From Escherichia coli (GTDB lineage: Bacteria; Pseudomonadota; Gammaproteobacteria; Enterobacterales; Enterobacteriaceae), in the NCBI RefSeq assembly GCF_045037415.1, contig NZ_CP173440.1: a stretch of DNA of 64,000 bases; one strand, written 5' to 3'. Shown here one piece after another: positions 1-6,000 of the stretch. A program made the position numbers. Within the stretch, counting starts at the first letter, position 1. Every line of letters begins with the position of its first letter.

Positions 1-3000
1 GGTTCCTGGTGAAGCCTGAACCCTTTTTTCTCTGGTAGATAACCCTTCTACTCCAACACAATGGTGCGAAGATATCTTTGCTGAATGTTCAGGTAATAGT
101 CTCAGTTTTGGAGGTGATGGCGAAGTGGCCAATATTCTCTGTGGCTATTTCTCCTTCGATACTACGGGAGCAGAACCGTTGCTTTCACTGCTGCCCTCAG
201 TCGTGGTCATCCCCTCTGACGCTGCCCGTTCACCACTTTTGGGCCTAGTGGGAGCGAAGCTGCAAAATGCGGCATCTGACTTTTTTGAACTGGATCTGAA
301 TAAAAATTACTCACCTGTGAAATGGTTACCATAGCGGTTACCCATTGATGATTCAGGGAGTTGGGATGTTGTTACAGGAGAAGGCTTTTGATGACAGGGA
401 CGAGTGGCATTTGCTTGCTGACGAGCTTTCCCTGCTACCGGGGATGACCGATACGGGGCGTCTGGGATTTGCCCTTCAACTAAAATTCCGACAGGTTCAG
501 GGCCATTATCCCGACTCTGTACACGATTTCCCTTCCGGCATTGTGCACACCATCGCTGAGCAGGTCGGATGCGCTTCCGTATCCCCTGAAAACTATCCGT
601 TTCAGGGACGGCAGGCTCAGCGACACCGACACCGACAACATATTCGTCGCTATCTGGGTGTCAGACTCCCCAGTAAAGCTGATATCGCACGACTCAGCGC
701 CTGGTTAACCGAATTTATCCTCCCGTTAAATCCGCAGGCCGTACATGGCAGTGAACTTGTTACTGACTGGTGTCAGGAACAGCTGATTGAACGGCCAGCC
801 ACCGAGCACCTGGAGCGGATTATACGTTCAGCTGTACACCAGTTCGAAACAAAGCAACAAAACACCATATTTACCCGACTTTCACTCGACAGTAAGGTTG
901 CCATCAATCATCTACTGTCTGCCGAAGAACCGGGCGCTGCCCAGGTAAACGAAGTCACATTCAGCGGCCTCAAAGCTGACCCGGGAAGGCCCAGTCTGGA
1001 GAATGTCCTTTCCGTCATCGCCCAACTAAAATGCCTTGATGGTGTTGCGCTACTGCCGAATATTTTTCAGGGCATATCTCCTAAATTCATCGTCCAGTTT
1101 CAACAACGGTGTGCCAGTGAATCGATCAGGGAGCTTCGTCGCCACCCTTCAGCGATCCGTTACAGCATGGTAGCTATGTTTTGCTGGCGTCGCCGCCAGC
1201 AACTGACCGATGCGTTGATTGAGATGTTGATGGTGCTGATCCATAATCTCGGTACCCGTGCTGAAAAAAAGGTCGATAAAAAGCAGTTTGCGGCGTTTAA
1301 AAAGGTCAGGGGCAAGGCGCGTCTGCTATTCCGCATGGCCGAGGCTACCGTTGACCAGCCAGACGGTGTCATAAAGGAAGTTGTCTATCCTGTTGTCTCA
1401 CAGAAAATGCTGCAAAATCTGGTCGATGAATTCAAAACTCTAGGGGTGAATACTGAGCAGGAAGTACATGAATCCATGCGTTCTTCTTACGGTAACCACT
1501 ATCGCAGGATGTTGATGCCGGTACTGGACCGGCTTGAGTTTCAGTCCGGCAATGCCCTCTATCGGCCCGTGATTGATGCTATCCAGATTATTAAGGAAAA
1601 CAGGACCAGCAATCAGCATTTCTATGCGGTGGGTGATGTGCCTGTTGACGGTATTATTCAGAAAAAATGGCGGGATGTTGTCATCGTACAGAGCCAGTCC
1701 GGTGAAGAGCGTATTAATCGTACCAACTATGAAATTTGTGTATTACGGGCTTTACGCAAAAGTCTGCGCAACAAAGAAATCTGGGTCACCGGCGCGGATC
1801 GCTATCGTGATCCGGCAGAAGATCTCCCTGCCGATTTTGCCACTAACCGCGCATATTATTATTCCCTGTTGCAGGCACCCACTGATGCGACAACCTTTAT
1901 TAATCAAATCAAAGACAGGATGCGCCAGTGGCTCGGTACGCTGGATAATGGCCTGCCGGATAATCCCAGACTTCGCATCAGGGAACAGGGGAAAAATCGT
2001 ATCCACCTGACGCCGCTGGATAAACAAACGGAGCCGCCCAACACCGCAGCGCTGAAGCAGGAGATTGGCCAGCGCTGGGCCGATCTGGAGTTGATAGACA
2101 TACTCAAGGAGGTGGATTTACGGGAACATTTCTCGTGGTTATTTCGCACATCGGCCAGTCGGGAAGTGCTGGAGCCTGAGGTATTACAACGCCGCCTGTT
2201 GTTATGTCTGTTTGGCCTCGGAACGAATGTAGGGCTGAAACGTATCGCCAGCCAGCAACCCCGCGTCAGTTATGATGAATTGCGTTACGTTAAACGGCGG
2301 TTTATTCAGAAAGATGCTTTGCGCTCAGCGATTTCACATATTGTGAATGGTATTTTCAGAATTCGTCAGCCCGCTATCTGGGGGAATGCGACGACATCCT
2401 GTGCGGCGGACTCCCGAAAGTTTGGTGCTTATGATCAGAATCTGATGACAGAATGGCATGCTCGCTATGGCGGGCGCGGCGTGATGATTTACTGGCATGT
2501 GGATACGCATTCCACCTGTATTTATTCACAATTGCGCCGCTGTTCCTCATCGGAGGTGGCCGCCATGATGGAAGGTGTTCTGCGTCACTGTACCGACATG
2601 GAAATTAACCACCAGTATGTGGACAGCCACGGACAAAGTGAGGTGGCCTTTGCGTTCAGTGATGTGCTGGGGTTCGATCTATTGCCGCGCCTGAAAGCGA
2701 TCGCCCGACAGAAACTGTATGTGTGTGAAAAGGAAGATACATCGTTGTACCCGCATCTTACGCCGATTTTAACCCGGGGGATCGACTGGGAGCTTATTGC
2801 ACAACAGTATGACGAGATAATCAAATATACAGCGGCACTTAAAACCGGAACGGCAGAACCCGAGGCCATATTACGACGATTCACCCGCAATAACATTCAG
2901 CATCCAACCTATAAGGCACTCGCGGAGCTGGGCAAAGCGATTAAGACCATCTTCCTCTGCCGTTATTTACACGATGAGTCACTGCGTTGCGAAATTAATG

Positions 3001-6000
3001 CGGGTCTCAACGTCGTGGAAAACTGGAACAGCGCCAATAATTTTATTTTTTATGGCGAACACGGAGAATTTACCAGCAACCGGCCTGCGGATCAGGAACT
3101 GTCGATGCTCTCTTTGCACCTGTTGCAAATCAGCCTGGTCTATATCAATACCCTGTTGATTCAAAATGTGCTGACAGAGCCGGCCTGGCAGCAGAGAATG
3201 ACAGAAGAAGACTGGCGTGGTCTGACCCCATTGATATACCACCATGTTAATCCGTATGGACGTATCGAGCTGAACATGGATCAACGGCTGGCGCTGGCAG
3301 CCTGATGGTGCCCAGAACCGTTCGGTTTCGTACACAGGGTCTTAATACTGTCCGAAAGTAAGTGAAATTACTTTCGGATATGCATTATGATTCGTACATC
3401 CTTTTCGGACGGAAATTTTCATCATGTCACGCGTTTTTGCCTACTGCCGTGTTTCTACACTGGAGCAGAACACGGAAAACCAGCGCAGGGAAATAGAAGC
3501 TGCTGGTTTTACCGTCAAATCCCAGAGACTGATTGAGGAGCACATCAGTGGTTCGGTTGCTGCCAGTGAGCGGCCTGGATTTACCCGTCTGCTCGACAGA
3601 ATGGAAAATGGTGACGTGCTGATTGTCACTAAACTGGATCGTCTTGGACGAAATGCTATGGACGTTAGGAAAACGGTGGAACAACTAGCAGCGTCCGGTA
3701 TTCGCGTACACTGTCTCGCGCTGGGCGGCGTGGACCTCACCAGCGCGGCCGGCAGGATGACCATGCAGGTGATTTCGGCCGTCGCTGAGTTTGAGAAAGA
3801 CCTGCTGATTGAGCGTACACATTCAGGGATTGCAAGAGCCAGGGCTTCGGGAAAACGCTTCGGGCGTCCTTCGTCACTCAATGGGGTACAGCAGCAGGTG
3901 GTGCTGGAACGTCTTAACGCTGGAGTAAGTATTGGTCTATTGCCCGTGAGTTTAGCACTACACGGCAGACCATTCTTCGCGTAAGGAAAGCAGCCGGAAA
4001 CGCGGATGCCGGGAACCTTTCTGGTGAAAAAATATCGTGAAACAGCGTCTGCTATCGAAACCTTAACCATGCATTGCAGGAAGAAAAGATTCCAGAGGAT
4101 TAATTTTGCTTTTAATGACTAACTTGATAAAAGGACATATATATTGATGGAAATTTCAACACAAAAACTGTCTGACGGCATCGTTCTGACGCTTCGCTCT
4201 CCCTCCGACAGTACAAAAAGCCCGGTGATCATTTTGTGCCATGGCTTCTGTGGTATCAGAGAAATTCTGCTACCTGATTTTGCTGAAGCATTTACCCGCG
4301 CCGGATTTTCCACCATCACGTTTGATTATCGTGGTTTCGGGGACAGTGACGGCGAACGCGGCCGCTTGGTTCCTGCTATGCAAATTGACGATATTATCTC
4401 TGTTGTTAACTGGGCAAGAGAACAGCCCTCCCTTGATGCGCAGCGTATTGGCCTGTGGGGAACATCATTTGGGGGATGCCACGTATTTGGTGCGGCGGTC
4501 AGAGACCCGGGAATCAAATGTATTGTCAGCCAGCTGGCTTTTGCAGACGGTGAAGAGATAGTCACCGGGAATATGAATAATGAAGAGAAAGAAGCTTTTC
4601 TTTCAACCCTGGACAAGATGGCTGAAAAGCAGAAGAACACAGGTAAAGAAATGTTCGTGGGTGTCAACCGGGTACTGAGCGATGCAGAATCAAAATCATT
4701 TTTCGAAGAAAACAGAACGCAGTACCCAAAGATGGACATTAAAATACCGTTTCTTACGGTGCGCGAAACTCTTCTGTACAAACCCGCATTGAATGCCTCA
4801 CAGGTGATGTGCCCGACCCTGATCGTTATTGCTGGTCAGGATACGGTTAATCCACCGGAGCAGGGACGGGCCTTATTTGACGCGGTGGGGGCCAAAGAAA
4901 AAAGGCTATATGAGGAAAGCAGTGCCCGCCATTACGACATTTATGCAGGAGAGCACTTTAAGCAGGTTATCAGCATTCAGACAGAATGGTTTAAAACGCA
5001 CCTGTAATTTTAGATAACGACTTACGGTGGGTTCAACAGAGCCCGCCGTTATGATAGACGTCAAATGTCGCATTTTGTAGCTTCGCTTCCGCTGGGCCCC
5101 ATAGGATCTGCCGGATCGTAGAGGCTGGCTCCCAGCGCCAGCTTCACGCCTCTGGACTGTAGTGCATCCGCTATCTCTCGTGCGTCAGGAACTGACCGCG
5201 CCAGCCGGTCAAGCTTGGGAACAGAACAACCAGCGTATCACCGCTGCGCACAGCGGCCAGCGCCTGATCAAGTCCGGGCCGTTGCCGGTTTGAGCCGGTC
5301 AGCCCTTTATCGAGGTAAATCCGGTCCGAAGATCTGGCATGCCTGTATTTGTCATTTTATTCAGCGCACGCACCATGGCCAAAGCCTCTGCAGCCTGACC
5401 ATCGTAATCACGCTACGCCAGCGAACCATCGAACAACTGCTTTACCCTGTACATCGGCGTTTCAGCTATCGACTGACGGTTGTAATCTGTTGTCCATTTC
5501 CACCGTGCATTGCTCCCGCTCAGTCGCTGATTCGCAACAGCACGATTGCGCTCTGCATACTCACCAGGCAAGAATCCCGCTCCCTTTCGGGGAGGAATGA
5601 GCGCGCTGATTTTCTTGCGAGGCAGTTCGTCATGACATCGCTGCGTATCGTAAGCGCCGTCCGCAGCAACTGACCTGATTTTTCGGTGGGTCTGCCGGAT
5701 AAGCCCCGGGGATGCTTCAGCATCCGTGACGTTGTTCAGTGACAGGTCCGCGCAGATGATTTCATGCCTACTCGCGTCAACAGTCAGATGCAGTTTCCGC
5801 CAGATACGACTGCGATCTTTGCCGTGCTTTTTGACTTTCCACTCACCTTCACCGAAGACTTTAAGCCCTGTGGAATCAATCACCAGATGCGAAATTTCAC
5901 CCCGGGTGGGCGTTTTGAAACTGACGTTAACCGACTTTGCCCGCTTGCTGACACTGGTGTAATCCGGACAGCGCAGCGGGACATCCATCAGGGCGAAAAT

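Follow-up and report, generated by a model that had tools for sequence, protein, structure and literature searches.

A partly decayed Tn3-family transposon with a predicted UilS-type lactonase gene on pLVPK-like virulence plasmids

Transposons of the Tn3 family typically encode a transposase of about 980 amino acids (DUF4158 plus DDE_Tnp_Tn3), end in inverted repeats of 38-39 bp and duplicate 5 bp of their target. A small serine resolvase gene has its res site directly in front of it, and passenger genes lie away from the transposition module (PMC7157771). Where tnpR and tnpA share one orientation, res is found upstream of tnpR (PMC7157771). Groups within the family differ in how these parts are arranged: in the Tn21 group (Tn4653) tnpR precedes tnpA, in Tn3 and Tn1000 the two genes diverge, and in Tn4651 (pWW0) tnpA starts beside one terminal repeat and reads inward, with TnpS/TnpT tyrosine resolution and tnpC in place of a serine resolvase. 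Here we describe an element of 4857 bp (positions 242-5098) that lies whole inside a 64,000-nucleotide stretch (the window) of an Escherichia coli assembly (GCF_045037415.1, contig NZ_CP173440.1) and is laid out as left terminal inverted repeat (IRL), tnpA, res, tnpR, uilS and right terminal inverted repeat (IRR). It shares the family features listed above, although target duplications and an intact resolvase gene are seen in its relatives rather than in this copy and res is a candidate, and it departs from the family in having tnpR downstream of tnpA, a res candidate that separates the 3' end of tnpA from tnpR, tnpA reading inward from the IRL, a TnpA N-terminus 10-16 residues shorter and GGCC ends. 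Our analysis makes it very probable that this is an ordinary, partly decayed Tn3-family unit transposon of pK2044/pLVPK with a UilS-type lactonase gene, and that its unusual features are normal for its lineage. Its parts and inferred mechanism are standard; the lineage is under-described.

The element, its resolution module and its lineage

A search of the window for inverted repeats returned a single long pair (236-280 and 5060-5104), and this pair together with a core pattern defines the IRL at 242-280 (plus strand, GGCCTAGTGGGAGCGAAGCTGCAAAATGCGGCATCTGAC) and the IRR at 5060-5098 (minus strand, read there as GGCCCAGCGGAAGCGAAGCTACAAAATGCGACATTTGAC). The two are imperfect repeats of 39 bp that match at 33 of 39 positions (6 differ), and their core AGCGAAGCTRCAAAATGCGRCAT occurs at just two places in the 64 kb, namely in the IRL and the IRR, and in none of 100 shuffles. 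We place the exact ends at 242 and 5098 because 5-bp target duplications bound the Salmonella and Pantoea copies introduced below. The termini are GGCC, compared with the GGGG that is usual in the Tn3 family.

The three co-directional open reading frames (ORFs) of the first-pass annotation (345-3305, 3424-3984 and 4144-5007, all on the plus strand) are indeed present with the expected domains, and NCBIfam and Pfam assignments together with ORF strands bear out its call of a Tn3-family transposon with tnpA and tnpR in one direction. The tnpA gene (348-3305, plus strand; NCBIfam NF033527, Pfam and PGAP) is intact. Its product scores 1025.7 bits on NF033527, the Tn3-family transposase model (cutoff 500), and matches Pfam DUF4158 as well as DDE_Tnp_Tn3 (PF01526), the latter over positions 1-388 of 389 (E 2e-132). 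Translation likely begins at ATG 348 (985 amino acids, the start chosen by PGAP) or ATG 366 (979 amino acids; this Met is not kept in the Pantoea TnpA) rather than at a TTG. That the frame cannot be extended upstream, as had been noted, is borne out by an in-frame TGA at 318-320, with the IRL ending at 280, and the N-terminus is short by two measures: residues 29-33 of the 979-residue TnpA align in BLASTP with residues 45-49 of the Tn4651, Tn4653, Tn1000 and Tn5393 transposases, and the DUF4158 match begins at profile position 24 in TnpA but at 1-5 in these four references.

Both the terminal repeats and a res site had been expected beyond the start of the window; the repeats lie within it, and a res candidate, which may also serve as tnpR promoter, lies between tnpA and tnpR at 3306-3411 (plus strand), put forward from motif clustering and conservation. 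Five half-sites of the form TGTCCGAAA/TTTCGGACA (3327-3334, 3349-3356 in inverted orientation, 3373-3380, 3391-3398 and 3404-3411) sit in the 118-bp spacer between the two genes plus the end of tnpA. The pattern TTCGKAYR has seven matches on the two strands of the window, where 13.8 are expected, and five of the seven fall within 85 bp at the res candidate. The half-site TGTCCGAAA presumably resembles that of the gamma-delta resolvase, which we take as a lead only. Positions 3349-3380 form a 32-bp palindrome (TGTCCGAAAGTA-N8-TACTTTCGGATA), and a promoter-like site (GTGAAA-18-TATGAT, 3362-3391) overlaps the candidate. Directly after the tnpA stop, an imperfect palindrome around CCGTTCGG (AACCG-TT-CGGTT, 3306-3334) is kept in four relatives with tnpR directly behind tnpA, and more distant members of the lineage have a related, hairpin-like AAAACG...GGTTT motif in the same place. 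A scan of 3306-3340 found no rho-independent terminator; a protein-binding site is the more likely role for this palindrome, which could be res subsite I or a 3' signal of tnpA. The block as a whole is preserved in relatives from Salmonella, Pantoea, Enterobacter and Vibrio, and its place upstream of tnpR follows the rule stated for co-oriented genes (PMC7157771).

The tnpR gene itself (3424-4040, plus strand), which encoded a small serine recombinase, is a pseudogene with a 1-bp deletion after position 3936, identified by alignment to the Salmonella copy as a single missing G. The frame is shifted from there on and the C-terminal helix-turn-helix, whose sequence is found in another frame, is therefore not translated. 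What had been taken for a plain ORF of 186 amino acids (3424-3984) is hence a frameshift product. Consistent with this, Pfam recognises the Resolvase N-terminal domain only and PGAP labels the gene 'frameshifted' in independent assemblies. The intact TnpR of the Salmonella copy matches Hin-type DNA invertase and the gamma-delta and Tn3 resolvases in the PDB (E 1e-25 to 1e-27) and is 33-36% identical to the resolvases of Tn1000, Tn5393, Tn4662a and Tn4653.

Two sister elements show what an intact member of the lineage looks like. The one on an IncF plasmid of Salmonella (CP054717, 96158-101009) is 4852 bp long, 98.6% identical to the window element (71 differing alignment columns) and runs from GGCC to GGCC between direct repeats of GAGTA. 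Its tnpR is intact, its IRR is identical to that of the window, and its tnpA differs from ours by 22 synonymous and 16 non-synonymous codons and an in-frame 6-bp difference. The other, on Pantoea agglomerans plasmid punamed3 (CP143405; 3877-10250 of the stretch retrieved), is 6374 bp long with the order tnpA-tnpR-pqaA-uilS, pqaA being the gene of a PhoPQ-activated protein; it has an intact tnpR and a duplication of AAAGA, and its TnpA is 91% identical in amino acids to that of the window. Both sisters share lineage, layout, repeats, res and the position of uilS beside the IRR with the window element, from which they differ in their intact tnpR and 5-bp duplication and, in Pantoea, in the pqaA inserted between tnpR and uilS. 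As to whether a well-characterized transposon of identical content exists, no named one was found; the near-identical, intact but unnamed Salmonella copy is the closest match.

Further afield, the closest database transposases (52-80% identical) come from Yersinia, Xenorhabdus, Enterobacter, Vibrio, Pseudomonas amygdali, Methylomonas, Thauera and others, among them a Vibrio relative with a TnpA 70% identical to ours in two copies. The TnpA proteins of these relatives (977-996 amino acids) have a common short N-terminus, M-x12-14-W-x-L...GMTDKGRLGFA, and in four of them DUF4158 starts at profile position 15-19. Eight of the nine relatives with readable downstream sequence have tnpR downstream of tnpA on the same strand; a tenth, from Yersinia, is outside this count as its contig ends just after tnpA. 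In Salmonella, Pantoea, Enterobacter bugandensis and Vibrio anguillarum (two copies, one bounded by TTAAT) tnpR follows tnpA directly, in Methylomonas, P. amygdali and one metagenomic contig a TPR-like gene or a toxin-antitoxin pair intervenes, and in Thauera an unknown gene of 330 amino acids takes the place of tnpR. Thus gene order and short TnpA N-terminus are, on this comparison, traits of the lineage rather than damage. A short N-terminus through degradation is set aside because it is common to all relatives examined, including two intact copies with target duplications. The first-pass wording, 'uncommon or partially degraded', consequently holds on both counts, the element being uncommon in type and partly degraded, and fails for the N-terminus. 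The actual decay of this copy (frameshifted tnpR, no target duplication, a mutated IRL) had escaped that annotation.

The inserted genes of the distant members are worth recording in their own right. The toxin-antitoxin pairs, on the same strand as tnpA and tnpR, are MNT/HEPN in P. amygdali and PSK_trans_fac/PIN in Methylomonas, and the TPR-like gene, likewise on that strand, encodes some 330-340 amino acids. Table 1 of PMC7157771 lists no toxin-antitoxin configuration with the order tnpA-toxin-antitoxin-tnpR.

As for mechanism, by analogy with the family TnpA of intact members would bind the 39-bp repeats and transpose replicatively, leaving a 5-bp target duplication and a cointegrate, which TnpR would resolve at the res site that directly precedes tnpR. 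This site probably holds the tnpR promoter, too. The gene between tnpR and IRR would be a passenger, and the lactonase it is predicted to encode would hydrolyse quorum-sensing signals of neighbouring bacteria.

Distance from the named Tn3 groups

How does the element relate to the described groups? TnpA is 24% identical to the transposases of Tn4651, Tn4653 (Tn21 group), Tn1000 and IS1071, 22% to that of Tn5393 (Tn163 group) and 21% to that of Tn4662a (Tn3000 group), with an overall range of 20-24%; the reference transposases are 21-40% identical among themselves. Tn4651 gave the best bit score of the references (239 bits) and resembles the element in the inward reading of tnpA from one repeat, yet at 24% identity it is no closer than the other subgroups and differs in its tyrosine resolution system, the element here having a serine resolvase. 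The Tn21 group (Tn4653) and the Tn3/Tn1000 group are alike in their serine resolvase (TnpR 33-34% identical) and in having res upstream of tnpR, but differ in gene order and, at 24%, in TnpA. Against the Tn4430 TnpA in the PDB the score was 214 bits. By pairwise distance TnpA fell with no named subgroup (Tn3, Tn21, Tn163, IS1071, IS3000/Tn3000, Tn4430, Tn4651), this being a comparison of distances to one representative per subgroup rather than a phylogeny, with the TnpR-bearing branch of Tn4651 (e.g. TnTsp1, NC_014154) left out.

On plasmids, transposases to which PGAP gives ISfinder-based names (TnAs1, Tn3, TnShfr1, ISPa38, TnAs3) are each about 23% identical to TnpA, and plasmid relatives that are 35-91% identical have a generic PGAP name only. 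In the literature searched we found neither a published name for the element nor a described class with tnpR downstream of tnpA. ISYps3 was considered as a name and ruled out, as papers describe it as a 7.3-kb element with 34-bp repeats on Yersinia pGDT4 or beside blaKPC-2; it is set apart by these descriptions and not by comparison with the pGDT4 sequence.

One might go further and see in the element an eighth, unnamed deep subgroup of the Tn3 family, marked by the order IRL-tnpA-res-tnpR-cargo-IRR, a shortened DUF4158 and GGCC/GGGC/GGGG termini, a proposal that we regard as tentative and rather doubtful. The same caution applies to what would go with it, that is, a lineage widespread in Proteobacteria and beyond, of which one Enterobacterales branch spread the lactonase, with or without pqaA, to the hypervirulent Klebsiella plasmid, to S. 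Infantis pESI and to Pantoea plasmids. Were it true, the plasmid lactonase may matter in competition with signal-producing neighbours.

The passenger gene and its association with the transposon

The passenger (4147-5007, plus strand; NCBIfam NF047920, named uilS by PGAP) encodes an alpha/beta-fold hydrolase of 286 amino acids that likely starts at ATG 4147 rather than at a TTG. While the first-pass annotation was right to see no resistance function in it, the hydrolase, which it had left without a family, can be assigned to one: it scores 524.8 bits on the NCBIfam equivalog NF047920 for UilS-family N-acyl-homoserine lactonases (cutoff 400) over 285 of 285 profile positions, and its translation has the nucleophile elbow G-x-S-x-G as GTSFG. 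The passenger is therefore predicted to be a UilS-type N-acyl-homoserine lactonase. K. pneumoniae itself is not known to produce acyl-homoserine lactones. UilS of Serratia marcescens has demonstrated lactonase activity, degrades own and foreign acyl-homoserine lactones and aids this organism in competition and in catheter-associated colonization of the urinary tract (PMC11633161). It shares with the plasmid hydrolase the equivalog family, the alpha/beta fold and a size of about 31 kDa; it differs in being encoded in strain RM66262, induced by urea via CpxR and part of the LuxR regulon (PMC11633161), whereas the hydrolase here is transposon cargo on a plasmid. Homologues 67-98% identical to the latter are common in Enterobacterales (Pantoea, Erwinia, Salmonella, Citrobacter and E. 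coli plasmids).

A general esterase or dienelactone hydrolase without a role in quorum quenching would be a possible, if unlikely, alternative, to be placed slightly below the eighth subgroup in our estimation. Pfam assigns the protein to generic alpha/beta-hydrolase families only, its closest solved structures are uncharacterized hydrolases, older annotations label it dienelactone hydrolase, and its identity to the Serratia enzyme of known activity is below about 67%. Against this, NCBIfam has it as a UilS equivalog at full length and well over the curated cutoff, and we therefore favour the lactonase.

Could uilS have been a late acquisition? The element might be a chimera in which a tnpA-tnpR module and a uilS-IRR module from two transposons were joined by recombination, so that uilS would be no long-standing passenger. 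E. asburiae pJF-587 has kept uilS-IRR, a pESI-like megaplasmid of S. Infantis (about 4250-6971 of the CP070303 stretch; 83-87% identity) holds pqaA, uilS and IRR, both remnants with a diverged IRR copy after uilS and neither with the tnpA-tnpR module, and identity to the Pantoea relative is unequal (86.7% over tnpA-tnpR, 93.2% over uilS-IRR). Module exchange at res is, moreover, documented in the Tn3 family (PMC7157771). Yet the S. Infantis remnant has a 90-bp piece of tnpA beside pqaA-uilS-IRR, which marks it as a deletion derivative rather than an independent module, homology with E. asburiae breaks off about 50 bp beyond tnpR rather than at res, and the Pantoea and Salmonella elements hold both modules inside matching repeats with target duplications. 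So to our minds a chimera is improbable, and the association of uilS with this transposon lineage is old. We note in passing that the S. Infantis remnant adjoins yersiniabactin genes.

Decay, host plasmids and significance

The window copy bears several marks of decay: the 1-bp deletion in tnpR, mismatched flanks and an extra mutation in the IRL. No 5-bp target duplication surrounds it: TTTTG precedes the IRL and CCATA follows the IRR. In the IRL, position 271 is G; the IRLs of Salmonella and Pantoea, like the IRRs of all three copies, have A there, and the change alters the motif GCGACAT common to these five repeats. For the flanks, insertion followed by deletion beside one end would be the simplest history.

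On the left, outside the element, lies the truncated 3' part of a cupin/AraC-family regulator gene (1-241, plus strand), cut by the IRL. Its frame runs on through the IRL to a stop at 334, with a Pfam Cupin_6 match in the ORF at 125-334; the C-terminal half of the regulator is lacking, and PGAP ends the gene at 241 and calls it 'cupin domain-containing protein, missing C-terminus'. A search for the uninterrupted target gene returned the same disrupted context in 593 of 593 plasmid matches, and the sole match to the left flank at 97.8%, MN956836, has the same gene neighbourhood with heavily fragmented annotation. On the right is a 220-bp fragment of an unrelated serine-recombinase gene (5099-5320, minus strand; PGAP and tblastn), frameshifted, cut at both ends and likewise outside the element, which corresponds in tblastn to about residues 30-110 of small resolvases and for which PGAP has 'recombinase family protein; frameshifted; incomplete'. 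At 31% identity only, it is ruled out as a second copy of the element's tnpR. The truncated AraC-like and resolvase genes can be explained as scars of insertion or deletion. Abutting the resolvase fragment and also outside the element, an IS5-family (IS903-like) insertion sequence (5300-6318, minus strand; Pfam DDE_Tnp_1_5 and DDE_Tnp_1, NCBIfam IS5 family) has a transposase with an 'internal stop' according to PGAP, and CGATTTATTCAACAAAGCC at about 6300-6318 presumably resembles the IS903 terminal repeat. A further IS5-family pseudogene with an internal stop is found elsewhere on the plasmid (NZ_CP083992.1, 62126-63094).

Positions 1-7500 of the window are 100% identical to pK2044 of K. pneumoniae NTUH-K2044 (NC_006625.1) and to dozens of pLVPK-like virulence plasmids, and at least 80% of this stretch is present in 567 plasmid records. 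The element occurs at 99% identity or more in 609 plasmid records and the same left flank in 593, and among the matches listed there is one place per record, with no direct search made for a further copy in pK2044. Of 5426 E. coli genomes 21 have it, on a plasmid every time and never in the chromosome; most of the host strains have labels that mark them as conjugation or transconjugant strains, and the pLVPK context is common to all 18 full-length matches. RefSeq annotation of one such copy reads truncated cupin gene, Tn3-family transposase, frameshifted recombinase, uilS, truncated frameshifted recombinase, IS5-family transposase with internal stop, HAD hydrolase and ter genes. The element is, in other words, fixed in about 600 pLVPK-like plasmids without sign of recent movement, and the window copy is a fossil, inherited with the plasmid rather than moving.

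That it should still be active, with its cointegrates resolved by host RecA or another plasmid-borne resolvase and with the potential to drive fusions of virulence plasmids, is the least probable of the alternatives, for although TnpA has its full length and a complete DDE domain, both terminal repeats are present, comparison with the Salmonella copy shows a bias to synonymous codon changes (22 vs 16) and defective resolution is expected to leave unresolved cointegrates, the element keeps to a single place in the same context in the plasmid records listed and to plasmids in the E. coli genomes, has no target duplication and carries the IRL change in an otherwise common motif. A report of Tn3-mediated fusion of such plasmids (PMC10714771) involves a carbapenemase plasmid with Tn5403, Tn3 and TnAs1 annotations, any of which may have mediated the fusion. 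None of these is the window element, which we set aside as the 'Tn3 transposon' of hypervirulent Klebsiella described there.

Several points nevertheless weigh against our view of an ordinary, decayed transposon with a lactonase passenger. Function at every level - transposition, resolution, lactonase - is assigned by homology. With TnpA and both repeats intact, the element may move if another route of resolution is available. Four of the five half-sites in the res candidate point in the same direction, unlike those in the classic res of Tn3 or gamma-delta. No ancestral plasmid with an intact AraC-like gene was found among the matches, and we infer the adjacent deletion from the mismatched flanks. 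Finally, Serratia UilS is absent from the best 120 homologues of the plasmid hydrolase, all of them at least 67% identical to it, which puts the latter below about 67% identity to the sole member characterized, and the plasmid enzyme could act on another range of substrates than Serratia UilS does.

The remainder of the surroundings is ordinary content of pLVPK-like plasmids as far as the HAD-IB hydrolase gene (6739-7374, plus strand) and the tellurite-resistance region behind it (from 7711-8952, minus strand, to about 23000) are concerned. The latter comprises a TerF-like TerD/vWA gene, terEDCBA and terZ-like genes, followed by a further cluster of ATP-grasp, phosphoribosyltransferase, StiP, terY/terX-like vWA and PP2C phosphatase genes. 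Further on, at about 31000-39000 of the window (70890-78053 of record NZ_CP083992.1), there is an eight-gene 'nitrogen starvation response' cluster with genes of the MSMEG_0567-0572/Sll0783-0787 families, a Nit6803-type nitrilase, a radical SAM protein and an AMP-binding protein, and past it a group II intron reverse transcriptase (ltrA).

For annotation, the gain lies in exact boundaries of the element, a res candidate and the recognition of tnpR as a pseudogene. To transposon biology the analysis makes a modest addition, a lineage in which the resolvase gene comes after that of the transposase, and with a TnpA as far from the subgroup representatives as these are from one another, naming the element in TnCentral or ISfinder may be warranted. 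As regards Klebsiella, one point alone is of potential relevance: an intact gene for a putative UilS-type lactonase is present on about 600 of the pLVPK-like virulence plasmids sequenced.

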